Virus record (IMG/VR): IMGVR_UViG_3300045988_117149
Length of the DNA: 64,000 nucleotides
Source of the DNA: a virus
Reading direction: 5' to 3' (one strand)
In this document: positions 2,667 to 51,007 of the stretch, piece by piece
How the letters are laid out: each line of letters begins with the position of its first letter
Numbering within the stretch: position 1 is the first letter of the stretch
The notes under the pieces: model-generated
Seen by the model: the letters and a program-made list of their open reading frames with translations, nothing else
Told to the model about the DNA's origin: nothing
The model's database searches: none
Translations under genes and position numbers: made by a program

Positions 2667-3488
2667 TCATTTTCTTATTTTATCCCAAAGGGAACCTTCA
2701 ACTTCTGGTTCACCTTCAAGTAGTTGTTTATTCTTATATTTATATAAATACTTATTGTATCTTTCAATTGCTTTATCCGTATACATTTGTGCAATATCTG
2801 GTAACCCATTGCACCATGCAAGAGATTCAAACTGAGCATCGATGAAGGTCTTATAATTCCAGCCCTCCTCTTTTAGGAATTCACCTACCTTTGCAAAGTG
2901 TACATACTTCTCAGGTTGATTTTCATAAGACTCATATATACCAGTTGCCTTAGCAATCTTACCTATGAAATAATCATGTATCTCTTTAGTAAGTTCTAAA
3001 TCTGAATGTTGTAATTCTATCTCAGCATCTATCTGATTAGTAATGTTTTCTTGCATGGATAATAACCTTTGCATAACATTCCGATAATCCTTCATCCTTT
3101 TTAACCCGGTCTCTATGTATTTGATAAAACCTTCTCGGGTATCAAATTTAAAATCCTCACAGAATGTATTACATATCTCGGCAAGCTTTTTACAATTTGC
3201 CCATTCTCGAGAATTACTTTCATTTATTTTACGAACTCCCCTATGCTTTAACTTTATACGGGTTGCATATAAAATATCGGCAACAAGGGCAGCATCCCCC
3301 TTAGATGCTAGTAAAATGTTATTAACTCGCTTAGTATTCTTATTATTAGAAACTAAGACTGCTCTATGATTTATTGCCTCCTTTCGAGCAATAACAAAAA
3401 AAGCCTCAACTGGGAAGTTATCTACCTCTAAGGTATTTAATATTTCCTCAAACTGAGACTTAGTTATATGGATAGATGGTTCACGCAT
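2667..3488 (-). CDS. hypothetical protein of the replication module
   Basis: 273-aa ORF lying 1 nt from the next gene; no motif recognised. Confidence 0.55.
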   Translation of the reverse strand: MREPSIHITKSQFEEILNTLEVDNFPVEAFFVIARKEAINHRAVLVSNNKNTKRVNNILLASKGDAALVADILYATRIKLKHRGVRKINESNSREWANCKKLAEICNTFCEDFKFDTREGFIKYIETGLKRMKDYRNVMQRLLSMQENITNQIDAEIELQHSDLELTKEIHDYFIGKIAKATGIYESYENQPEKYVHFAKVGEFLKEEGWNYKTFIDAQFESLAWCNGLPDIAQMYTDKAIERYNKYLYKYKNKQLLEGEPEVEGSLWDKIRK

Positions 3489-29275: not shown

Positions 29276-32200
29276 TTAATCTACATCTTTAAGATTTCTG
29301 AGTTCTGAGATTTCAGCCTTCAAAGCCTTAATCTCATCGTAAAGAAGTTTGATACCTTCGATTGCCAGAGTAGACATCTTATGGTACTTAACTTGTTTTA
29401 CCAATACGTATTCTTCACCGTCGATAACAACTGTTTCGAATTCCTCAGGATTAGGAACTGAATCCTTAGTTCTTGGGTCTTCTTCTACGTAGTTATTAAA
29501 CCCAGCTGCTTCCAAACCTTGTGCAATGGTACCTTCATCTTCCTTACCATCCATGATAAAGGATTCTGTAGGTATACTGCAAATTTGTTCCAGAGTATGG
29601 GTTAACGGTTTGATGTTAGATTTCAATCTTTCATCGGAAGACTCTTTCCAGAAACCAGAAGGAGCAGTAGTCTTAGCAAATACTACCTGGTCGGTAGTTG
29701 CCAATCCCAACTGGGTTCTAGTTACTGAATGAGGATTATCCTTTCTACCTGCATGGTTACTGATAGAAGTCTGAGCAGCAGTACCAGCAGCCTTAGCATC
29801 GGCAATGGCAGAAGCTTGAGCGGTAGATACTGGTTTGTTAGCATCCGAGGTATTATCGGCATTACCTAAACCTACCTGAGCCTTGGTTACTCCATGAGGA
29901 TTGCTCTTATTGGCAATATGCTGATTTACCTTGGTTTCCAATGCCGTTAAATCGGTATCAGTATTACCTACTGCTTCATCGATGTAAGTTTTCAATTCTG
30001 TTCTAAGAGAATTGATAGCATTGGTTCTGTTAGTAATTTCATTTGCCAACCCAGTAACTGTGTTATCCAGGTTCTTCTTGTCGGCTGCAGTCATTACACC
30101 GGCTACGGTTTGTGTAGCTGCAGGAATATCGAAAGTATGTTGAGTTTCGTTTACCTGGAAACTACCATCCTCTTTCCTTTCTGTCCACCAATAACCTATG
30201 GTTAATTTAGTAGCAGAAGTAATCAGATTAATTAAATTACCTGAGTTCTCCAAATCTCTACCAAGGATATGGTCAGGGAAACTGTTAATCTTAGCCGTAA
30301 TTGCATTATCGGCATTAGTACGATTGGTAGTTTCGGTAGCTATCTGATTAGGTAGGGTAGTGTCAAGCTTAACCTTATCAGCAGCAGTCATTACACCAGC
30401 CTGAGAAGCTGTAGCAGCAGTAATCTGAGAATAATGATCTTGAATATTACCATTACCAAACCAACATTTGAAATTCAGTCGTACTGTACTTGCTTGGTAA
30501 GTGTTATTATTAAAATGAGATGCACCATTAGCTTTCAGAGAAGCTACCTGGTCTTCCAATTCTTTACCTCTACCACCATCGAAAGCAGTACCTGTAATTT
30601 GTCCAAGGATAAGTACCTGAGCATCTGCCCTTGCAAAGATAGTACCTGTCCAACGGAATTGGTAAGGAGGTTCACCATTGGTAATATTGATATAAATCTT
30701 ACCTGCCTCTCCAGTGATAGCATTCTGATGAGCAGCATCCGAATACAATTTGATATTCGTAAGTTCTCCCGTAGCAGATTTATCATAAGTAGCATATACA
30801 TCAATGATGTCATCTACGTATGATGGCAATTGGTTAGCCGGTACCGTACCATTAGCATCAAGAGAAGCAAAGCCATTAGCTTTACCTTTCGTAGCAACAA
30901 AGGCATCATGCTTAGCTTCTAGAGCATCAATATTTGCCTGCAATTTATTATCAAGTGCGGTATCTGCTGCGGTTCTATCGGATATCTCTTTGTCGATTCT
31001 TGCACCCAATGCAGTATCAGCATCCGTACGGGCTTTTGCTTCATCGGCTACTGCTTTAGTGAACTTAGTATCAAGGGCTGTATCGGCATCTTTACGGTCT
31101 TGGATTTCCTTGTTTAGAGCAGCTGTAGAGGAATTAGTCAAAGCCTCGATTGCATCTTTACGGTCTTGAACCTCTTGAGCAATAGCATCTGGTAATGTCT
31201 CATCAAGATTTACCTTATCTGCTGCAGTCATTACACCCGCAAGAGTTTCAGTAGCAGCGGGTATATAAGTAGTCTTAAAATCTCCAGCTTCACTGGTATA
31301 AATACCACTCTCTTTTTTAGAAGAGAACTTATGAGTTAAAGTAACATGGCTACTCTGTTGAACTACCTCAACTGGTTTATCACCAGATAGGATGATGACC
31401 TTATCTGGTATAGAATCGAACAACTTCTTATCAGCTGCTGATTGTACACCAGCCTTTTCGGGAGTAGATGAAGGCAGAGTAATGGGATTCTGAACTGTAG
31501 TACCATCTTCAACATTAGTCTTAGTAGCAGCAATTCCTACAGTAGTTTCATTAGGAGTAACTGCACCCAAAGCAAAGTTAGCGGTATTGATTCTGTCCAA
31601 TTCTACTTTATCTTTCGCAGTCATAGTACCAGCCTTATCTGCTGATACTACCGGTAAATCGAAAGTATCCGTAGTGTCATCATTCAAGCCATTATCCTTA
31701 GTTACTGTAACTGTAACCTTATCAGCATCAGAAGCTGCTGAGATTTCGGTAATAGCATTGGGGTCTAAGCCATCAAGTTTAACCTTGTCTGCAGCAGACA
31801 TAACTCCGGCAAGAGTTTGAGTAACTGGCAAAAGGTTCTTAGTTGCCTCTACCTCATCACCATACTGATTATTCTCTTGGTCTTTAGTAGAAGTTTTTAC
31901 CTTGAATGTAAGTTGAGTAGCGTTACGAGTTACAGCACTTACATCTGTAACCATGGTACCAGGCAAAGCATCAGAAGTACCTTCCTCAGCTACCAATCTT
32001 TCCTCATGGTCATTGGTAATTGCAGTGAATTTATTATCCAATGCAGTATCGGCATCGGTTCTGTCTTGGATTTCTTTATCGATACGAGCATTGATTTTCT
32101 TATCTTCTGCAATACGAGCAGCTTCCTCTGCATCGATATTATCCTGGAGAACTTTATCGGCAGCAATTCTTTCTTCTCTTTCTGTATTGAGGTCAGAAGT

Positions 32201-35200
32201 ATTCTGGTCGATTTTTGCCTCCAATCGGATATCTTCGGATTTACGAGTAGCAATTTCACTTTCCAACAAATCCTTGATGGCAGTGTAATTACCATTAACG
32301 TTATCTTGAATACCCTGGATTAGTTCCAAGTTACGTTGGATATTTGCCGAATTCTGATTTACCAAAGCATTGGTAGCATTCAGAGAAGTTAACAACTCTG
32401 TACGAGTTTCACTAACGAAAGTTCTCAAATCATTTACCGTTGTGGTAAGAGTAGTACTCAGGTTAGTGAAAGATTGTTGCAGGTTATCGTCTCCTTGTTC
32501 ACGCAAGTTCTTTTCAGCAGTAAGCTTATTTTCTAATTCAGTAAGCTTAGCAGTCATAGTTGCAGCGAAATTTGGGTCATCCCCTAATGCCTTAGCAATC
32601 TCTGCTAGAGTATCAAGTACTTCAGGTGCAGAACCAATAATCTTTTGGATAGCTGCCTCTACTTGTTCTGCATTCTGGAAATCAGAATCATTGAGTAATT
32701 CTGATACCTTCGTAATGTAGTTAGCATGTTCTTCGATGCCATCAAGTTTAGCATACAGAAGGTCGGTAAAATCATTTGCAGAAAGACCCTTGCCATCTAC
32801 TTTGTCTACCTTCTTATTATCCATTGCCTGGTCTGCAGCAGTACGGTCTGCCTTTTCCTGAGCAATAGCATTATTAATAAGGGTATCTTGATTAGCACGT
32901 TCTGTGGCCTCCTTATCGATATTGGTTTGCAACAGAGTATCACCTGCCAAACGTTCGTTCTTCTCAGTAAGGATATCCTGGTTGATAGCAGCCATGTCAT
33001 CCTTGTGATTCTGAAGATTGGTATCAATCTTTGCCTCAAGAGAAGTTTCCTTGGCAATTGCCCGGTCTTTCTCTGTATTGATTGCAGTGGTATTATTCTT
33101 AACCTGCTCTTTGAGGTCATTCATAGCAGTCGTATTGCCTGCCTCTAGAGTATCAATACGAGCTCCCAATGCAGTATCAGCCGCAGCTCTGTCCGTTTTT
33201 TCTTGGTCAATCTTGGTATTCAATTTACCTACCTCTGATTCCAAAGCTTGTTTGGTATTATCCAACTTAGCAGTGAATTCTGTAGACAAGGCTTTATCTG
33301 CAGCAGTACGGTCTGCTACTTCTTTATCGAGATTTACCTGAAGAACTTGGTCTGCAGCTGTTCTCTCAACACGTTCAGTGTTAAGGTCGATATTTACATT
33401 ATCAATACGAGAACTCAAACCACTGTCAGCATTAGTACGGTCAACGATTTCCTCGTTAATCATATCCTTAACCTCCTTGTAGTTATCACCTACTGTCTTG
33501 GTTAAGTTAGTGATGGCTTCTGAGTTTCTTTCGATATCGTGCTGATTAGTAGCGATAGCAGTAGTATTCGCATTAACCTGTTCCGTAAGTTCATTACGAA
33601 GAGTGTTAATAGAATCCTGAATGCTCAAAGCCAATTCTGAAACACGTTTGTTTACGTTATTCAAACTTACAGTGTAAGCCTCATCAGCAGTCTTTCTGTC
33701 GGCAATTTCCTTATCCAAGCTTGCCTGGATTGCGGCATCTGCATCTTTACGGTCTTGGATTTCTTTGTTCAAGTTATCCTTAACTACATTAAGAGCAGTA
33801 TCACCAGCAGTGGATTTATTGTCGATATATTCTTTCAGTTTAGTTTCAAGAGCAGTATCTGCAGCAATTCGGTCTGCCTTTTCTGTAGCTACCTCTGCAC
33901 TGTTTGCAGCATCACCAGCAATACGGTCTTCCTTCTCTTGGTTAATCTCCTCGGTTAAGGCAGCTAACTTCTTGGTGATAGTTGTTGCAAAGTTGGGGTC
34001 ATTACCAAGAGCATCGGCAATTTCCTTCAAGGTATCAAGTACCTCGGGAGCAGAACCTACAATTTTCTGAATAGCAGCATTAACTTGCTCTTCATTTTGG
34101 AAGTCCATATCATTAATCAACTCAGAGAGCTTGGTAATGTAATTGGCTTTCTCTTCAATACCGTCAAGCTTAGCTTTGAGAATATCCGTAAAGTCATTCT
34201 TAGTCAATGAATAACCTTCACGTTTATCTACCTTCTTATTATCAAGAGCAGTATCTGCATCTTTACGAGCCTGAGTTTCAGTAGCAATAGCTTCTAACAG
34301 TTGAGTCTTATCTGCTTGACCTTGGAGTTTTACATCCTCAATCTTATGATCCAAAACCAAATCCTGAGCAGCACGAGCAGTAGCTTCGGAATCAATATTA
34401 TTCTGAAGTACCTGGTCTGCAGAGGTACGAGCTTGAGCCTCTTGGTCAATTTTACCTTGCAAAGCATTATCTGCATTAGTACGGTCAGCTACCTCTTTAG
34501 AAATTTCATTATGAAGAACTTGGTCCTCAGAATGACGGTCTACTGCTTCCTGGTCAATCTTACTCTGCAATGCTTGAGTATCTGATTGGCGATTAGTGAT
34601 TTCCTCATTAATCTTAGAATCCAGAATAGTATCTGCATTCGTACGATTAGATACCTCTTCAGCAATCTTGGCTTCAAGAGCAGCCTTGTCATTGATGTGA
34701 AGAGTTTTGAGTTCATTTACACTTTCCTTGATTTCGTTATCGGCAGCGATACGTTCGTCCTTTTCTTGTTGGATGAGGCTCTTAAGTTCATCCTTAATCT
34801 CATCGCTCTTATCGTTTACCTTATCATTGAGATCCTTAATGTCTTCGGCATTTTTATCTGCCTTAGCTTCTACCCGAGCAATATCAGCTTTCAAGTCTGC
34901 CTTAACAGTATCAATTTTGTTGATTAACTGTTCAGCAGCATATTTCAAGTTATCATCTACCGCAGCAATAGCAGCACCCAATGCAGCTTCTGCTTCCTTA
35001 GCACGACTTACTTCCTCGCTAAGAGAAGTACGAAGCTCGGTAAGTTTATTTGTGATAGTTGTTGCAAAGTTGGGGTCATTGCCCAAGGCTTCTGCCAACT
35101 CCTTAAGAGTATCAAGAGCATCATCAGCACCATCAACCAGGTCACTGATTGCCTTCTTAACATCCTCTTCAGTTTGGAACTTGAGATCATTTTCAAGCTC

Positions 35201-35446
35201 TGAAACTTTAGTGATGTAGTTTGCTTTCTCCTCGATTCCATCCAACTTAGCCTTAAGCTCGTCGGTAAAATCGTTTTTAGATAAGCCATAACCTTCTTTC
35301 TTATCTACCTTATCCTTGATAGAAAGTACGAAGGCCCAGAACTCATTAATAGTTCCGGCAAAGCCAGCACGAACAAAGTCATCATAGTAACCTTGTAACA
35401 ACCGCTGGTCAATTTCTTCGCAGGTATAATACTTACTTACATACAT
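29276..35446 (-). CDS. giant tail fibre (2056 aa) with triplicated module, coiled coils, GVM(S/T)AADK repeats and a C-terminal S74 intramolecular chaperone
   Basis: LDTLKE(L/I)A(E/D/K)ALG(N/D)DPNFA occurs three times. At least five (T/Q)xAGVM(S/T)AADK(V/K)xLD repeats. SDERLKSNIKPL lies near the C-terminus. Confidence 0.85.
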   Translation of the reverse strand: MYVSKYYTCEEIDQRLLQGYYDDFVRAGFAGTINEFWAFVLSIKDKVDKKEGYGLSKNDFTDELKAKLDGIEEKANYITKVSELENDLKFQTEEDVKKAISDLVDGADDALDTLKELAEALGNDPNFATTITNKLTELRTSLSEEVSRAKEAEAALGAAIAAVDDNLKYAAEQLINKIDTVKADLKADIARVEAKADKNAEDIKDLNDKVNDKSDEIKDELKSLIQQEKDERIAADNEIKESVNELKTLHINDKAALEAKIAEEVSNRTNADTILDSKINEEITNRQSDTQALQSKIDQEAVDRHSEDQVLHNEISKEVADRTNADNALQGKIDQEAQARTSADQVLQNNIDSEATARAAQDLVLDHKIEDVKLQGQADKTQLLEAIATETQARKDADTALDNKKVDKREGYSLTKNDFTDILKAKLDGIEEKANYITKLSELINDMDFQNEEQVNAAIQKIVGSAPEVLDTLKEIADALGNDPNFATTITKKLAALTEEINQEKEDRIAGDAANSAEVATEKADRIAADTALETKLKEYIDNKSTAGDTALNVVKDNLNKEIQDRKDADAAIQASLDKEIADRKTADEAYTVSLNNVNKRVSELALSIQDSINTLRNELTEQVNANTTAIATNQHDIERNSEAITNLTKTVGDNYKEVKDMINEEIVDRTNADSGLSSRIDNVNIDLNTERVERTAADQVLQVNLDKEVADRTAADKALSTEFTAKLDNTKQALESEVGKLNTKIDQEKTDRAAADTALGARIDTLEAGNTTAMNDLKEQVKNNTTAINTEKDRAIAKETSLEAKIDTNLQNHKDDMAAINQDILTEKNERLAGDTLLQTNIDKEATERANQDTLINNAIAQEKADRTAADQAMDNKKVDKVDGKGLSANDFTDLLYAKLDGIEEHANYITKVSELLNDSDFQNAEQVEAAIQKIIGSAPEVLDTLAEIAKALGDDPNFAATMTAKLTELENKLTAEKNLREQGDDNLQQSFTNLSTTLTTTVNDLRTFVSETRTELLTSLNATNALVNQNSANIQRNLELIQGIQDNVNGNYTAIKDLLESEIATRKSEDIRLEAKIDQNTSDLNTEREERIAADKVLQDNIDAEEAARIAEDKKINARIDKEIQDRTDADTALDNKFTAITNDHEERLVAEEGTSDALPGTMVTDVSAVTRNATQLTFKVKTSTKDQENNQYGDEVEATKNLLPVTQTLAGVMSAADKVKLDGLDPNAITEISAASDADKVTVTVTKDNGLNDDTTDTFDLPVVSADKAGTMTAKDKVELDRINTANFALGAVTPNETTVGIAATKTNVEDGTTVQNPITLPSSTPEKAGVQSAADKKLFDSIPDKVIILSGDKPVEVVQQSSHVTLTHKFSSKKESGIYTSEAGDFKTTYIPAATETLAGVMTAADKVNLDETLPDAIAQEVQDRKDAIEALTNSSTAALNKEIQDRKDADTALDTKFTKAVADEAKARTDADTALGARIDKEISDRTAADTALDNKLQANIDALEAKHDAFVATKGKANGFASLDANGTVPANQLPSYVDDIIDVYATYDKSATGELTNIKLYSDAAHQNAITGEAGKIYINITNGEPPYQFRWTGTIFARADAQVLILGQITGTAFDGGRGKELEDQVASLKANGASHFNNNTYQASTVRLNFKCWFGNGNIQDHYSQITAATASQAGVMTAADKVKLDTTLPNQIATETTNRTNADNAITAKINSFPDHILGRDLENSGNLINLITSATKLTIGYWWTERKEDGSFQVNETQHTFDIPAATQTVAGVMTAADKKNLDNTVTGLANEITNRTNAINSLRTELKTYIDEAVGNTDTDLTALETKVNQHIANKSNPHGVTKAQVGLGNADNTSDANKPVSTAQASAIADAKAAGTAAQTSISNHAGRKDNPHSVTRTQLGLATTDQVVFAKTTAPSGFWKESSDERLKSNIKPLTHTLEQICSIPTESFIMDGKEDEGTIAQGLEAAGFNNYVEEDPRTKDSVPNPEEFETVVIDGEEYVLVKQVKYHKMSTLAIEGIKLLYDEIKALKAEISELRNLKDVD
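32530..32810 (-). repeat. fibre module copy 3 (VDKVDGKGLSANDFT...DPNFAATMTAKL)
   Basis: More diverged at the DNA level; collinear at the protein level. Confidence 0.7.
33955..34232 (-). repeat. fibre module copy 2 (VDKREGYSLTKNDFT...DPNFATTITKKL)
   Basis: The 29-nt core gtgatagttgttgcaaagttggggtcatt at 33975-34003 is identical to 35052-35080. Confidence 0.8.
35035..35310 (-). repeat. fibre module copy 1 (about 92 aa: VDKKEGYGLSKNDFT...DPNFATTITNKL)
   Basis: Shares a 29-nt identical core (35052-35080) with copy 2. Confidence 0.8.
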
Positions 35447-44776: not shown

Positions 44777-45826
44777 CTAGTGATTCCGTTTAAGGCATTT
44801 CTTAAACCAAATCCCCACCTCATAAACCGAACCCTTGGCAATTGTGTACCTTGCCTTGTTTAACCAATAATGGTGATTTTTAAAATCCCCTTCATAGGTA
44901 TCACCTCTGGTAGTTTTGTAGAGGTAAATTTTAAATTTCTCTGGGAATCCCATGATTGCCTTGAAATCCTCAACTCCCAATGGGTACCCATCTGGTCTAA
45001 ATTGCCTATCTGCAGGTCTCAAGGTTAATGGAGGTTTATCATCTTCCAATCGATATACTCCCGGGAGAGTACTCATCTTAGTTGTCTTGATAGGCCACTT
45101 CTTTTCCTTGTTGAAGTCTCTAACCCAGAGTCTATGTATCTTTGCTACTGTAAGATTCTTTTTCTCTGGTAGCTTTCGATAGTCATACATTGCCAGGGTT
45201 TTTGCCATAAATGGAATTTGGTTAGTATCAATTTCAGAGCTAAACGTTAGCGGCTTAAGCAACTCTCTAGTTGTCTTTAGTTCATTAACTTTAAATACTT
45301 CATCAAAAGCATTTAAGTATTTCTTACCGGTCTTCTTATGAACTCCAATGATGAGTAATCTCTTCCTTGACACTTGAGAGTTCCCATAGTCAGAAACTGA
45401 CCTTTCATGAAAAACTAATTTATAGTCTTTCAGTGTTTCCTCAAAGAAATCCTTGGGTAGCAAGGATAGTAGTCTTGGTAGATTTTCTATAAGAAATACC
45501 TTAGGTTTATACTCTAATATTGCAGCAATTACTAGATTAAGACTACGATTATCCTGGGGATTGCCCAACTCCTTTACTTTTGATAACCTCATAACTGAGG
45601 ATGCACCACAGTCTGGGGATGAAATTATGATATCTACTTTCTCATCAAATTCTTGTAAACAGAAACCCTTGTAGAATGGTATATCCCCAAAGTTGAGTTT
45701 CCATTGTTCTTCGCCCGGTGTATGGAATACTCCTCTAATCTCTATATTCCCTAACAAATTTTTCTTAAAAGGGAACAGGAGTGCACCCTGTCCAGCGCAC
45801 ACTCCCAATACCTTTAGATTCTTCAT
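44777..45826 (-). CDS. DNA (cytosine-5)-methyltransferase
   Basis: Motif I VCAGQGA, motif IV SPDCG, motif VI IENLPRLL, motif VIII QVSRKRLLIIGV. Confidence 0.8.
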   Translation of the reverse strand: MKNLKVLGVCAGQGALLFPFKKNLLGNIEIRGVFHTPGEEQWKLNFGDIPFYKGFCLQEFDEKVDIIISSPDCGASSVMRLSKVKELGNPQDNRSLNLVIAAILEYKPKVFLIENLPRLLSLLPKDFFEETLKDYKLVFHERSVSDYGNSQVSRKRLLIIGVHKKTGKKYLNAFDEVFKVNELKTTRELLKPLTFSSEIDTNQIPFMAKTLAMYDYRKLPEKKNLTVAKIHRLWVRDFNKEKKWPIKTTKMSTLPGVYRLEDDKPPLTLRPADRQFRPDGYPLGVEDFKAIMGFPEKFKIYLYKTTRGDTYEGDFKNHHYWLNKARYTIAKGSVYEVGIWFKKCLKRNH

Positions 45827-46263
45827 TTCTTATAACTTCTCAATTTTACGTACTTAAGCCATGCAAATGGTTTACGATTCTCCAAGTAGTATGGGTCTTT
45901 ATCATTATTGTGAGCTTCCTCTTCGAAACTTACATCATGATACCTCTCATTCTGTTTGTTCCAACCGGCAAAGCACATGATAATAAGATATTCGATTCCA
46001 TACCAAATGTAAAAGAATCCCAAACCAAGGATAGGAATCCACCAGAAGGATAGACCCAATGAGCAGAGAATGATTCCTAGAATCAGACCCACAATTGTAC
46101 ACTCAATCTGTTGTACTTGGTGAGTACGTTCGTGATCAATATCCTCTTGCAATAAATCCTCTTCTTTATCCTTGAAGAAGGAGTTATAGAGGAAGGTAAT
46201 TGCCTTGTAACTGGGGAAAAGGAATACTTTTGCTACCCAGCTGTTAAAATGACATCTTTTCAT
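45823..46263 (-). CDS. membrane protein with HExxH motif (holin or mini-metalloprotease candidate)
   Basis: DHERTHQ followed by two hydrophobic helices (IVGLILGIILCSLGLSFWWIPILGLGFFYIWY). ATGA overlaps with both neighbours. Confidence 0.5.
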   Translation of the reverse strand: MKRCHFNSWVAKVFLFPSYKAITFLYNSFFKDKEEDLLQEDIDHERTHQVQQIECTIVGLILGIILCSLGLSFWWIPILGLGFFYIWYGIEYLIIMCFAGWNKQNERYHDVSFEEEAHNNDKDPYYLENRKPFAWLKYVKLRSYKK

Positions 46264-46856
46264 ATCTTATCTTTGAAGTTTTCGTAAGAATTTCTTAGCT
46301 TTTGGTCGTAAGCATTTTGTGCATATCCAGGACCATTGTACTTTCTTGCAAAGCCTGCCCAGTCCTTTTCCTTGAGATTCTTCAAACAACCAGAGGTATT
46401 CATGAAGTAGTACATCAATTCTAGTTGTTTTTCGTGAGATTCTGACATCTTATGAACGAATTCATAGACATCTTTACAGCTACAAAGATTGTGATTGAAG
46501 CCCATGATCTGGAACATTCCCCAACTTGCAGACTTTAAAGCACATTCTTCGTCAATTTCTTTGGCTAATTCGAGTCTTTTGTACTCATGAACACCTCCGA
46601 GATACTTCGATTTATCCCATTTAGGGAAAAATACTGTAGGATACTTCTTGCAAAGATAACCTAAATCTCTGTCAGGGAACTTTTTATGAAATTCCTTGTA
46701 CATGATGTGACCTTCGAAGAGGATTTGAGGTCTACCGTCAGCCAAAAATCCATCTCTACCAGCTGCTTCTACTACTTGAACAGCTTTGAGTAGAGCTGGT
46801 TCTAGACCCAAGCGATTAGCAAGGTCTCTAATCATCTCATTTGTTAATTTATCCAT
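46260..46856 (-). CDS. endolysin, N-acetylmuramidase family (DUF3380/PF11860-like)
   Basis: SWGMFQIMGFNH and FARKYNGPGYAQNAYDQKL motifs. Confidence 0.75.
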   Translation of the reverse strand: MDKLTNEMIRDLANRLGLEPALLKAVQVVEAAGRDGFLADGRPQILFEGHIMYKEFHKKFPDRDLGYLCKKYPTVFFPKWDKSKYLGGVHEYKRLELAKEIDEECALKSASWGMFQIMGFNHNLCSCKDVYEFVHKMSESHEKQLELMYYFMNTSGCLKNLKEKDWAGFARKYNGPGYAQNAYDQKLRNSYENFKDKI

Positions 46857-47940: not shown

Positions 47941-48128
47941 CTACAGTAATATTGACAATTTACCTGGTATGCTTACCGTTCACAGTATTCTTTGTAAAAG
48001 CAACATTAGAATACTTGCCTCAATCACATAAGGTGCATTCACTGGTATTATTCTTATCGGTCTGGTTTTTGCTACCTTTATTTCCGATTTACCTATTATT
48101 GAAATTCATAAAACATAAACTGGTATGA
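47937..48128 (+). CDS. small two-helix membrane protein
   Basis: 63 aa, almost entirely hydrophobic; ATGA overlaps on both sides. Confidence 0.5.
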   Translation: MTTVILTIYLVCLPFTVFFVKATLEYLPQSHKVHSLVLFLSVWFLLPLFPIYLLLKFIKHKLV

Positions 48129-48424
48129 GATACTTTTTTGATAGAGATGGTAATTATGCTGGGTCATCAATGCAAGGGTGGGAGGTAATACTCCTACTCT
48201 GCCTCCCAGTTCTTATTGTATTATTCTTTGTATTCCTTCCCTTAATTATATTGCATAAATATGCCTCTAGAGAAGAAGATAAGAAATTCGAAGAAGAACA
48301 TCCGCAAATATTAAAAGTAGATTCTTATATTACCGGCTGGTACCCTTGGCATAGATATTCCCTTGCATATACCATCTCCCTTGTATGTTGGGTAATTGCA
48401 ATGCTAATGGCTTTGACTAATTAA
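48125..48424 (+). CDS. small membrane protein (two helices)
   Basis: WEVILLLCLPVLIVLFFVFLPLIIL and SLVCWVIAMLMAL. Its stop overlaps the convergent stop of ORF 48417-49175. Confidence 0.5.
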   Translation: MRYFFDRDGNYAGSSMQGWEVILLLCLPVLIVLFFVFLPLIILHKYASREEDKKFEEEHPQILKVDSYITGWYPWHRYSLAYTISLVCWVIAMLMALTN

Positions 48425-49175
48425 TCTTGATTCTAAGCATAACCCTTTTAACATATCCGTTTATCTTATTGCCCAGTATAAGTTCTATAAGTATACCTCC
48501 GGAGAAATCTGAAGGAGAAAGGTTTCCTTTTTTAACGGTAATAGAACCATGACTATAGGAACCAGAGGGAGTCCAATCGGATGGGTCTACTGTATCTATC
48601 TTATAATTAATGGCTTGAGAATATTCTCTATCACAACCATAAAATAAACCTTGAGCATCATAGAGACTCATATTAAAATAGAAATCAGAATAAGGTACCA
48701 ATTGACTACCTTTTAAGTAGAGCTCGAATATAGCAGTGGGTTCTGTATATGAACCATTATCAGACCAAGGGACCTTAGTTACAGGTATAAGTAAATATTC
48801 ATCTTGAGATGCAGGTAAGGTACCTGAAGTTACATATTGACCATTATAGTTTAAGATATAGGGTAAGTCTTTATATGTAGTTAGAGAGTTCTTATCATAC
48901 CTACCCCATATTTCTACATACATTGGGATATCTACTGCCTTCTGAGTGATTGTGATAGTGATAACTTTACCAGTAGTGGCTTGGGTAAGAGTGATAGTGG
49001 CTGCTCTACTTGAAGAACCTGAGTTTGCAGAAATGTCTACTTCTAAATTGTAAGATACTGCATCATTTGATGTCTTCTTAGTAAAAACCCAAGCATTACT
49101 TGATGAGATTGGTGGGTCATATGTGATACTTGTAGTAAAGTCAATAATATCTGACTTAGATACTTTACCATTCAC
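48417..49175 (-). CDS. BACON/Ig-like protein, paralog C. The true gene is probably 48417-49300, but its ATG is out of frame at the G9 tract.
   Basis: The track start is only a GTG. The frame is open upstream through the tract, and the ATG at 49300 joins it if the tract is 10 or 7 nt long. Motif SSRAATITLTQ...ITITITQ. Confidence 0.6.
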   Translation of the reverse strand: MNGKVSKSDIIDFTTSITYDPPISSSNAWVFTKKTSNDAVSYNLEVDISANSGSSSRAATITLTQATTGKVITITITQKAVDIPMYVEIWGRYDKNSLTTYKDLPYILNYNGQYVTSGTLPASQDEYLLIPVTKVPWSDNGSYTEPTAIFELYLKGSQLVPYSDFYFNMSLYDAQGLFYGCDREYSQAINYKIDTVDPSDWTPSGSYSHGSITVKKGNLSPSDFSGGILIELILGNKINGYVKRVMLRIKIN

Positions 49176-49276
49176 TACAGTATCTCTATATGAGTGAATG
49201 GTAAAGGTCTTTTTGGTTGCATCTGAAGGTACTGTTATTTCCTGAGATGCGGCTCTGGTACTAAATACCAGATTTA

Positions 49277-49285
49277 GGGGGGGGG
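49277..49285. repeat. G9 homopolymer (C9 on the coding strand)
   Basis: Counted directly: gatttaGGGGGGGGGattta. Confidence 0.95.
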
Positions 49286-49309
49286 ATTTAAATTTTCCAT
49301 ATCTTTCTT

Positions 49310-49933
49310 TTAATATTGATACATGTCAATTCTGTTACTAGCTATAATGTCCCCATAACTAAATCGTATATAAAACCATCCAAAATAAGTTCCGGAACTT
49401 CCTCCCTTAGTAGAGATTACCATAGAATCAGTACCTTGAGTTTGGTCTGAAGCTATGGAGAAACCACCATTAAAGGGACTTTGTTGAGATATCTCAAAGG
49501 TATCAGTAGTTCCCATTCCTTCAGTTTCGATAGTACCATCAGAATAGATATCTGATTTGAAAACCTCGAAAATCATTCTGGATATAGTTGAATCTACATG
49601 GGTTTCATAAGTTTCTGTGTTGGCATCATAGATATAGTTTCCATTATCCGGATTACCTACACAGAAATATTTAGTTGAGATTATATATCTCTGAGGAACC
49701 TGAGAGTAATTAAGGGTAATCCTCTTACCGGATGCAGGTTGGAGAAGTACTATCTTACCACTTCGAGTGGAAGAGGTATTATTAGCTGGTACTGTAATGG
49801 TTAATTGGGAAGGAACCTCAGAAGTCTTAATAGTACTACCTGAGGGTAAATTCTGAGATTCCACTTTCCAATTAGCAGCATATTCTTGAGCTAAGTTACC
49901 ATTGATGTACTTATAGGTAATAGATTCAACCAT
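49310..49933 (-). CDS. BACON/Ig-like protein, paralog B. The true gene is probably 49310-50024, but its ATG is out of frame at the C7 tract.
   Basis: The frame is open upstream to 50005. The ATG at 50024 joins it if the tract is 6 or 9 nt long. Motif SSTRSGKIVLLQ...ITLNYSQ. Confidence 0.6.
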   Translation of the reverse strand: MVESITYKYINGNLAQEYAANWKVESQNLPSGSTIKTSEVPSQLTITVPANNTSSTRSGKIVLLQPASGKRITLNYSQVPQRYIISTKYFCVGNPDNGNYIYDANTETYETHVDSTISRMIFEVFKSDIYSDGTIETEGMGTTDTFEISQQSPFNGGFSIASDQTQGTDSMVISTKGGSSGTYFGWFYIRFSYGDIIASNRIDMYQY

Positions 49934-49986
49934 TACTACGGTAGTTTCTCCTGCCCCTGCAAAACTTAAATCAAGGGTGGTGACCT

Positions 49987-49993
49987 CCCCCCC
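49987..49993. repeat. C7 homopolymer (G7 on the coding strand)
   Basis: Counted directly: gacctCCCCCCCtacgg. Confidence 0.95.
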
Positions 49994-50035
49994 TACGGAA
50001 TGATACTACATTTTTCTTTTCCATATCCTTGAAAT

Positions 50036-51007
50036 TTATAAAGTGATTATTTGGTCTGATGAAGGCAATAGGAAAGTAGACCTTAATTGCCAAGTTTGAT
50101 TAGTAAATCTATAAGCTGATATACGATCACCTGGGTAAGCCATTTCAGTACTACCATTTTGTAAATTTACTCTTACACCCTCAGATTTTTTATACTTATG
50201 GACTGAGGTATCATCTAATACAGCGAAATTAAAATAAGCTGTACCAGTACTACCAGTTTGAGGTGTTTGCCCCTCTTTGAAGAAAGCTCCTGAAAAAGTG
50301 TTCAGAGGCCAATTGATTGTAAGGGTGATATCCTGTTCCGCAGCTTTCTGCCATATAGTCACTTCTCTACGTTGGTCACCACAGGTTACTAAGAGTGTTC
50401 CGGACCTTTCTGAAGAACCCGAGTTTGCTGCAGTTGCTTTAACTATAATTTGGTACCAATTAGGTGCACCTGCCATAATAGACCCATCTTTAACTGTAAC
50501 CTTAGTTGCCCAAGAAGGAGTTACTCCTACGGATGGTTGTTTGGCCATTACCTCTCCATCACTTCGAGTCATATAAGATTGAACCATAATCGTAGTAGTA
50601 TTACCTATATTAGCTCCTATGGTAGCACTTACATTCAATACACCTAAGAAGTAGGTATAAGTGAAGTTGGGTTCTTGACTTATAGGGAAAGATATAGTTT
50701 GACCAGATTCTCTCTGCTTAAATACAAGAGTATGGGTTCTGGCAGAGGAACCTGTATTCTCTTGCAGGGTGGTAAAAGTTACTTTGCAATCATTGCCCTC
50801 AAAAGCATATTTCACGCTTACCCAAGAGGGGATGCTGGATTCCATATCCCAATCTACATTAGTCTTCTGCCCAGTACTCTTGCCATTAATGTACTTGGTC
50901 TTATAGGAGTAGATATAGGTAGTCTTGGTATCCCCAACATTCTGACCTATCTCAAAGACCGATGCCCTGGGTGCAGCATTGGCTACTCTAAAGTTAAATT
51001 CGTTCAT
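50036..51007 (-). CDS. BACON/Ig-like protein, paralog A (two domains, intact)
   Basis: SSARTHTLVFKQ...ISFPISQ and SSERSGTLLVTC...EVTIWQ motifs. Uninterrupted ATG-to-stop ORF. Confidence 0.65.
   Translation of the reverse strand: MNEFNFRVANAAPRASVFEIGQNVGDTKTTYIYSYKTKYINGKSTGQKTNVDWDMESSIPSWVSVKYAFEGNDCKVTFTTLQENTGSSARTHTLVFKQRESGQTISFPISQEPNFTYTYFLGVLNVSATIGANIGNTTTIMVQSYMTRSDGEVMAKQPSVGVTPSWATKVTVKDGSIMAGAPNWYQIIVKATAANSGSSERSGTLLVTCGDQRREVTIWQKAAEQDITLTINWPLNTFSGAFFKEGQTPQTGSTGTAYFNFAVLDDTSVHKYKKSEGVRVNLQNGSTEMAYPGDRISAYRFTNQTWQLRSTFLLPSSDQIITL

Follow-up and report, generated by a model that had tools for sequence, protein, structure and literature searches.

Two adjacent genes of a gut phage, both encoding small BACON/Ig-like two-domain proteins, are interrupted a few codons past their start codons by G:C homopolymers whose lengths differ between nearly clonal relatives. 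Some of these lengths join the 5' leader of the gene to its body and others put the two out of frame, and full-length and truncated products are both abundant in public assemblies. Slippage at the DNA level, switching the two genes (paralogs B and C) ON and OFF, is the likely explanation for the tracts. This reading draws on the anatomy of the tracts and their frame logic, on length polymorphism in near-clonal genomes, on purifying selection on the gene bodies, and on the position of the tract in a tail modeled as disordered. Throughout, the window is the whole stretch of DNA analyzed, 64 kb of the IMG/VR virus record IMGVR_UViG_3300045988_117149.

Frame logic of two homopolymeric tracts in a three-gene operon

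Three paralogous genes, A, B, and C, lie head to tail on the minus strand (51007-48417) and look like one operon because the gaps between A and B and between B and C are only 11 and 9 nt. Their features, in the order of transcription, are as follows.

50036..51007, minus strand: paralog A, an intact 323-aa BACON protein, the first of the three operon genes, without a G/C run of at least 6
49994..50024, minus strand: paralog B leader, ATG at 50024-50022, then MEKKNVVSFR(R)
49987..49993, minus strand: candidate switch 2, G7 on the coding strand (C7 on the plus strand), out of frame in the window; G6 or G9 joins the leader to the B body
49971..49973, minus strand: TGA, the OFF-state stop of the B leader, closing a 17-codon frame, MEKKNVVSFRRGGGHHP*
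49310..49986, minus strand: paralog B body, entered in the ORF list as 49310-49933 with an internal ATG as its start; alignable with A and C
49286..49300, minus strand: paralog C leader, ATG at 49300-49298, then MENLN
49277..49285, minus strand: candidate switch 1, C9 on the coding strand (G9 on the plus strand), out of frame in the window; C10 or C7 joins the leader to the C body
49274..49276, minus strand: TAA, the OFF-state stop of the C leader, closing an 8-codon frame, MENLNPPP*
48417..49276, minus strand: paralog C body, a BACON domain and a second, beta-rich C-terminal domain

At paralog C, direct reading of the minus strand gives AAGAAAGAT ATG GAA AAT TTA AAT CCC CCC CCC TAA; an earlier, sequence-only reading of this DNA had described exactly this arrangement of a start codon, nine C, and an immediate stop. 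The ORF at 48417-49175 is listed from a GTG at 49175, and upstream of this codon it stays open (in the -1 frame) through the tract as far as 49325, so that the GTG is preceded by residues 9 to 42 of the ON protein. The same reading proposed that 10 or 7 C would connect the ATG to this ORF. Our in silico edits agree: adding one C or removing two at switch 1 yields a protein of 294 or 293 aa, respectively, beginning MENLNPPPLNLVFSTRAAS. It was mistaken on one detail, the four prolines of the C10 product, which is MENLNPPPLNLVF and has three. Among relatives, the third codon of the C leader is AAT or AAC, a synonymous difference.

A twin switch, absent from that reading, is found at paralog B, whose leader is broken by the G7 tract at 49987-49993. 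This leader reads ATG GAA AAG AAA AAT GTA GTA TCA TTC CGT AGG GGG GGA GGT CAC CAC CCT TGA and is kept in relatives with conservative substitutions; the body of B is open in the +1 frame up to 50005. With G6 or G9, leader and body fuse to read MEKKNVVSFRRG(G)EVTTLDLSF..., and the in silico product is 237 to 238 aa long. The C9 tract lies 5 codons into C and the G7 tract 11 codons into B. The N termini of the three paralogs align (FNFRVAN in A, VSFRRGE in B, and LNLVFST in C, followed in each by ...SY...NGK). Paralog A is presumed to be always ON. A scan of the operon for sigma-70 promoters and terminators returned no more than shuffled sequence did, with a model that is not informative for a Bacteroidota phage.

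Placement of the tracts

Only two G/C runs longer than 5 occur in the 64 kb, the G9 at 49277-49285 and the C7 at 49987-49993 (plus strand); elsewhere in the window, no G run exceeds 4 and no C run exceeds 5. Both outliers lie at most 40 nt from the start codons of adjacent paralogs. Significance from composition alone was considered and rejected: a G9 run appeared in 16 of 100 dinucleotide-preserving shuffles, and G7 was matched about four times per shuffle. Since runs of these lengths are thus not improbable, the argument for nonrandomness is built on where the runs lie and how they are conserved. Related loci totaling 356 kb contain 53 G/C runs of at least 7; of these, 52 are found no more than 45 nt past a leader ATG, and the remaining run occupies the same leader site, with the ATG mutated.

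Tract length varies among close relatives

To follow the tracts among relatives, we used a comparison set of about 55 related gut-metagenome contigs from IMG/VR, ENA, and Logan, each represented by the consensus sequence of its own sample. Uninterrupted C tracts of 7, 8, 9, 10, and 11 are present, 7 and 10 being the in-frame lengths; uninterrupted G tracts range from G6 to G10, with 6 and 9 in frame. Interrupted forms exist for both. At the C tract, CCCTCCCCCC is ON and CCCCCTCCC and CCCTCCCCC are OFF, and at the G tract, GGGGGAGGG is ON and GGGTGGG and GGGGGTGG are OFF. Natural alleles with in-frame tract lengths encode full-length B or C. All four ON/OFF combinations were found: both genes ON in L001 (G9/C10), C alone in L002 (G7/C10), B alone in L073 (G9/C9), and neither in the window (G7/C9).

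Several of these differences are seen on constant backgrounds. The window and L001 are 98.4% identical over 3.3 kb, and the sole small indels between them are +2 G and +1 C, both at the tracts. The C bodies of the window and L026 are identical (dN = dS = 0 over 279 codons), yet the tract is C9 in one and C8 in the other. An identical 277-aa OFF product of C is encoded by 10 contigs; the C leader could be read in nine of them and carries C8 in five and C9 in four, while in L078, from the same set, neither leader pattern was matched. The B tracts of this set are G7, G8, G10, or GGGTGGG. Five of its contigs differ in tract length and have sample names that resemble a dated series, suggesting that these five come from one site. 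Likewise, 10 contigs share an identical 294-aa ON product of C, and their B tract is G8, G9, G10, or GGGGGTGG, or B is absent.

A repeat of at least 7 within an ORF, toggling of the reading frame, and length polymorphism between close relatives well above background mutation, three of the marks of a contingency locus based on a simple sequence repeat (SSR), are found here. The sequence-only reading had proposed a slipped-strand ON/OFF switch at the C tract and had suggested tract length in related contigs as a check. The check favors the switch: the C tract spans 7 to 11 between near-identical genomes, and in-frame and out-of-frame lengths are both common.

Counted over distinct sequence contexts and on consensus sequences, the ON state is found in 8 of 17 cases for C and in 8 of 28 for B. 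Since an ON fraction near one third is expected for random lengths, the sequences do not indicate that selection favors one state over the other.

Sequencing is known to be error-prone at homopolymers, and it could be argued that the true tracts are always in frame, that B and C are ordinary genes, and that the OFF alleles are sequencing or assembly miscalls. One call in our set invites such caution, the in-frame C7 of L035, which comes from a contig covered only 1.09x that has an additional G at another place in the body; we set it aside, and C7 as an ON length is backed by L057, L058, and P0024. However, out-of-frame lengths recur in many independent Illumina assemblies, including those of L026 (UOJV01004308) at 764x and L074 (ERZ1304860) at 122x. 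Two alleles carry second-site compensation: in L004, a C9 tract is accompanied by an extra A ten bases upstream, and in L014, a G7 tract is accompanied by an AG insertion just downstream, and both genes are ON. Compensating indels of this kind make sense only if the out-of-frame tracts are real. Moreover, out-of-frame tracts interrupted by a substitution (C to T; G to A or T) are not explicable as length miscalls, and all other A7, T7, and C5 runs in the window, among them the A7 and T7 runs at 3396, 19538, and 53018, lie inside intact ORFs. We regard miscalling as an extremely improbable account of the tracts.

Recoding and gene decay as alternatives to switching

A real out-of-frame tract could also serve expression directly. 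Runs of at least nine identical bases promote slippage of RNA polymerase, and CCC codons beside a stop codon are shift-prone. Programmed recoding, either transcriptional slippage or ribosomal frameshifting (by tRNA-Pro on C CCC CCC next to the TAA), would then set the ratio of full-length product in place of DNA length. The bodies of OFF-state genes are under purifying selection (see below), as continuous low-level expression would also bring about. Yet recoding needs a conserved out-of-frame layout, and in-frame alleles are common among the contexts counted above, both for C (8 of 17) and for B (8 of 28). The shift that would be needed also varies, from -1 for C9 to +1 for C8 and C11, and is +1 or -1 across the G lengths; in addition, some in-frame leaders are tract free or interrupted (MEKELIPINFNL, NPSPL, and GGGGGAGGG). 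For these reasons, we think it unlikely that recoding explains the tracts, although some leakiness through transcriptional or ribosomal slippage at C9 or G7 may add to a DNA switch.

Alternatively, B and C could be decaying accessory genes in which the homopolymers are chance sites of inactivating frameshifts and have no role in switching. A consensus ON fraction of about one third is compatible with decay, and so are the locked-OFF interrupted alleles seen in several samples (CCCCCTCCC in L009, L010, and L033; GGGGGTGG in L088, L093, and L094), the deletion or further truncation of B in L004, L005 to L007, L028, L054, and L055, and the missing C start codon in L029. Among these losses of B is a clean deletion of ∼698 bp that joins the B leader to the C body. 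Locked-OFF alleles in multiple samples, together with the B deletions, suggest that gene loss is tolerated. Judging from these sequences, B and C are dispensable accessory genes, B is sometimes lost, and B may be drifting toward loss in some lineages.

Decay as the explanation for the tracts themselves is nevertheless very unlikely. All 21 of the 21 C bodies examined are uninterrupted, and dN/dS is 0.22 to 0.38 for diverged OFF-OFF pairs, which is similar to that of ON-ON pairs (∼0.27). The tract is retained across cassettes and bodies in a genome with no further G/C run longer than 5, and tracts on identical protein backgrounds go back and forth between in-frame and out-of-frame lengths, which argues for repeated length change rather than one-way loss.

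The tract lies in a predicted disordered tail ahead of a BACON domain

With the Pfam BACON model (PF13004; gathering threshold, 25 bits), paralog A scores 42.5 bits, C scores 25.6 bits, and B scores 20.6 bits; B, which is below the cutoff, is assigned to the family by paralogy alone. PHROGs returned no informative family for A, B, or C. We modeled P0001, an ON homolog 98% identical to C, with AlphaFold2 from a 20-sequence alignment. The mean pLDDT of the model is 64, with values of ∼80 over the all-beta BACON domain (residues 19 to 120); residues 1 to 16, among them the prolines that the tract encodes, are disordered (pLDDT, 28). Leaders encoding PP and PPP are both natural, and in the model, the tract sits in a tail that appears to be tolerant of length.

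The beta-strands at residues 19 to 24, 30 to 36, and 40 to 43 all precede V43 of the P0001 model, which corresponds to the GTG of the truncated ORF, so that an OFF product restarted at the GTG would be predicted to miss three strands of the BACON sandwich. The segment recovered by frame restoration had been taken for genuine coding sequence, and this holds: it aligns with paralog A and contributes these three strands to the modeled domain. The C-terminal domain of C is modeled with low confidence (pLDDT, 40 to 70), and fold matches that span both domains have high root mean square deviations. Among viral proteins, the fold search placed highest those of gut phages and crAssphage annotated as "Binding domain, N-terminal" or BACON; matches in the PDB are generic tandem Ig-like domains and B. 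thetaiotaomicron 2mw1.

The operon is located outside the tail module. Its domain family, taken together with a 2026 study of BACON proteins (PMC13370021), suggests that A, B, and C may be virion-displayed adhesins or accessory receptor binders. In that study, BACON proteins of crAss-like and Flandersviridae-like myoviruses, displayed on another phage, conferred epithelial and mucus adherence. These adhesins resemble the present proteins in that they belong to the BACON family, are found in an 84- to 88-kb gut myovirus (with sheath, baseplate, and DnaB), and are modular, combining a BACON domain at the N terminus with C-terminal domains that vary. Peptide and DNA motifs of A, B, and C were not found in the supplements of the study, and the adhesins tested there remain unmatched to A, B, or C.

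The phage and its relatives

The window encodes TerL, portal, protease, major head protein, tail sheath, tape measure, and baseplate wedge proteins, which identify the phage as a myovirus, as well as a 2056-aa fiber with an S74 chaperone domain, DnaB, a C5 methylase, and a muramidase. No tRNA genes were found in the window, and no reverse transcriptase or invertase was seen near the operon. The relatives are human-gut metagenome contigs of 84 to 88 kb, and the nearest cultured relatives by TerL are Flavobacterium phages, with 35% identity. GenBank phage DNA was searched in distant mode with the operon and in near mode with 24 kb of the window; the outcome was no match or only a 1.5-kb terminase fragment from rat gut, and so no annotated relative. 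The conserved motif that follows the tract had zero matches in 185,579 bacterial and archaeal genomes, and thus gives neither a sign of a prophage nor a basis for assigning a host. Compared by description, the phage agrees in genome size, modules, and habitat with the proposed family Flandersviridae (Benler 2021; PMC8008677), phages of 85 to 90 kb with a contractile tail, DnaB/DnaG/PolA, and a Bacteroides/Parabacteroides host in the gut.

A model for independent switching of B and C

We envisage that a hypermutable G:C homopolymer a few codons past the start gates each of B and C. During replication of phage DNA, slipped-strand mispairing would add or remove G:C pairs. Whenever the C tract has 3n+1 residues (7 or 10) or the G tract has 3n residues (6 or 9), the leader would be joined to the body and a full-length protein made; at other lengths, translation would end after 8 codons (C) or 17 codons (B), and any protein restarted farther down would be without the three initial beta-strands of the BACON domain. 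Each switch would act independently of the other, so that one burst could release up to four genotypes (B+/-, C+/-) on a constant A, a form of bet-hedging over which Ig-like carbohydrate-binding modules the phage carries. The window would represent the state in which both switches are OFF (G7, C9). In this model, polymerase slippage would proceed at a high rate within a population, switching would be reversible, and mutability itself would be under selection.

More tentatively, the paired tracts could provide a combinatorial, heritable, yet reversible display of BACON modules that bind mucus, epithelium, or capsule, with the leader and tract forming a portable cassette moved by recombination from one adhesin body to another and among diverged phages; we regard this extended scheme as possible rather than probable. 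If it is true, each burst would seed subpopulations with A only, A+B, A+C, or A+B+C, and the operon would be the first contingency locus to govern the positioning of a phage in the mammalian gut or the tracking of phase-variable Bacteroides capsules instead of a classical receptor-binding tail protein.

The leader and tract recur on different gene bodies

Homologs differ in the residues that their leaders encode (PPP, PP, NPSPL, ALPPL, and the tract-free MEKELIPINFNL), and BACON N termini of the A type are seen fused to C-terminal domains of the C type. The leader-tract unit is also found on other bodies, where it again occurs in both states: C9 (OFF) in L059 and C10 (ON, 336 aa) in L060, and G8 (ON) in L064 and L068 versus G10 (OFF) in L026, with further examples in L052, L071, and L072. 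In L071, a single leader contains G7-AT-C9. Eight other matches to the B-type leader pattern (L061 to L063, L065 to L067, L069, and L070) were discarded as chance hits on unrelated contigs.

Cassettes that share as little as ∼50% amino acid identity keep the tract at the same site, and different bodies do so as well. The window and L026 have an identical C cassette, though their A and B regions are only ∼72% identical, and the junction is at the tract; the tracts thus also mark recombination junctions. The fused allele of L005 reads G6-TGACCT-C6. An RNA hairpin between G and C runs, an idea that came from fused alleles such as this one, was set aside, the tracts in the window being ∼700 nt apart.

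Relation to known contingency loci

Homopolymers and other SSRs drive phase variation of surface genes at bacterial contingency loci in Haemophilus, Neisseria, and Campylobacter. The loci described here resemble these in having the repeat near the 5' end of the ORF, in comprising several independent loci, and in showing interrupted, "locked" alleles in natural populations. Unlike them, they are borne by a virus and are probably replicated by the phage's own machinery, DnaB being encoded in the window; switching would therefore act per burst rather than per cell lineage. A PolA has been reported for Flandersviridae (PMC8008677).

The sequence-only reading knew of no such switch for a phage virion or for adsorption, but there are precedents in Fletchervirus polyG tracts (2021) and in the contingency loci of T2 and T4 (2025). 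In Fletchervirus, as described by Sorensen et al. (Cell Rep 2021, as reported in PMC11959909 and 10.1101/2025.10.21.683753), polyG tracts of 7 to 11 are present in genes for receptor-binding proteins. Going by these accounts, the two systems share G:C homopolymers in phage coding sequence (7 to 11 bp there, 6 to 11 here), several paralogous genes per genome that serve, or here may serve, host interaction, and frameshifts that give rise to ON/OFF subpopulations and bet-hedging, which here would follow from our model. The present phage differs in belonging to an unrelated lineage with hosts of another phylum, as a gut Bacteroidota myovirus of ∼87 kb; in carrying the tracts in small BACON/Ig-like two-domain proteins outside the tail module; and in placing them in a short exchangeable leader, 5 to 11 codons from the start. 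Its candidate switch is known from sequence alone. The GenBank phage DNA search revealed no homology to Fletchervirus receptor-binding proteins or to that lineage, and the TerL relatives are Flavobacterium phages. Thus, the present system resembles that of Fletchervirus in mechanism and is not homologous to it.

Contingency loci have been demonstrated in T2 and T4 (agt and rIIA) and in other coliphages (Gomez, Barrick and Waters, bioRxiv 10.1101/2025.10.21.683753), and polyG tracts also occur in BPP-1 and PB1-like phages (10.1101/2025.10.21.683753). Like the tracts described here, those of T2 and T4 are homopolymeric SSRs in phage ORFs; their frameshifts are reversible, driven by slippage, and produce population heterogeneity. 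The T2 and T4 loci are mostly runs of at least 6 spread over all gene classes in AT-rich genomes, whereas here two exceptional, position-conserved G:C runs are confined to one paralog family in a genome otherwise without such runs.

Phages also diversify host-interaction proteins by other routes, namely, reverse-transcriptase mutagenesis in the diversity-generating retroelement (DGR) of BPP-1 and site-specific inversion of the Mu G segment by Gin. These systems resemble the candidate switch described here as phage-encoded programmed variation of host-interaction proteins. They differ from it in mechanism and in altering specificity rather than presence or absence.

We found no literature linking BACON genes or Flandersviridae to homopolymer switching, and the study of BACON adhesins (PMC13370021) makes no mention of homopolymers, of frameshifting of BACON genes, or of phase variation. 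Until now, the demonstrated contingency loci of phages were confined to the Fletcherviruses of Campylobacter and, very recently, to T-even and a few other cultured phages; the same logic now appears in an uncultured and highly prevalent group of Bacteroidota phages of the human gut. The gene class concerned, BACON Ig-like proteins, is the one that the 2026 study tied experimentally to epithelial and mucus adherence and to gut retention. If the switch works as we propose, these phages would have no fixed adhesin repertoire and would hedge between adherent and nonadherent states or between states specific for capsule types, which bears on the bacteriophage-adherence-to-mucus (BAM) model and on arms races with phase-variable Bacteroides capsules. 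Regulation of adherence by gut phages becomes directly testable in this paired, portable switch, for which natural ON and OFF alleles on identical backgrounds are ready experimental controls. There is also a consequence for annotation: gene callers split or truncate genes of this kind, as with the 252-aa and 294-aa products. The peptides that span the tracts are MENLNPPPLNLVF and MEKKNVVSFRRGEVTT.

Exchange, deletion, and suppression at the tracts

The window, with its paralogous BACON genes A, B, and C, was compared with related gut-metagenome contigs. The C body (window 48417-49276) is nucleotide identical in its coding part to that of contig L026 (UOJV01004308, 764x), with dN = dS = 0 over 279 codons; the A and B regions of the two phages are only ∼72% identical, and the break in similarity falls at the tract. 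Together, these observations indicate that the C cassette was exchanged recently between the two diverged phages.

In several relatives (L005, L007, L031, and L055), a clean deletion of ∼698 bp relative to window 49286-49984 has removed the entire B body. The B leader, G tract included, now runs straight into the C body (junction CACCACCC|TAAATCTGG), an arrangement that places C under the control of the G tract in these phages. The L005 junction, G6-TGACCT-C6, resembles an inverted repeat and is in frame.

Frame is also restored by changes next to tracts of the wrong length. L004 (IMG/VR 078616) carries an additional A in GGAAAAAC, upstream of an out-of-frame C9, and in L014 (IMG/VR 075452), AG is inserted after an out-of-frame G7 (GAGAGATC). 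Both changes are second-site frameshift suppressors adjoining the out-of-frame tracts.

Both tracts adjoin in a single B-type leader of L071 (IMGVR_UViG_3300030123_000033; minus strand, ∼5078), which reads …CGTAGT G7 AT C9 AAG…. BLAST showed no similarity between the 238-aa body behind this double tract and any of A, B, and C. Within the window, the sole A/T run longer than 7 is a T9 run at 2-10; as this run reaches the edge of the window, at its very start, it could not be interpreted.

Gene calls in public databases

Proteins of three clusters (P0001, the in-frame [ON] homolog of C; P0007; and P0024) have been called either as 294/286-aa ON products or, from an alternative start, as 252/253/277/284-aa out-of-frame (OFF) products. 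The C gene is split in this way in hundreds of public assemblies; thus, many BACON proteins of this phage group are artificially N-truncated in protein databases.

Other genes

Four further genes of the window were noted:

29276-35446, 2056-aa protein bearing an intramolecular chaperone domain (Peptidase_S74) at its C terminus
44777-45826, C-5 cytosine DNA methylase (PF00145)
46260-46856, N-acetylmuramidase (PF11860)
48125-48424, plus strand, 99-aa hydrophobic ORF

The Peptidase_S74 protein, likely the main tail fiber, is encoded apart from the BACON operon. The methylase and muramidase genes lie between the terminase and the operon; one speculation is that phage-encoded C5 methylation might change how G:C tracts slip or undergo mismatch repair. 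The 99-aa ORF is convergent with C (48417-49175, minus strand), with an 8-nt overlap at the C stop codon, and is kept beside C in all relatives listed.
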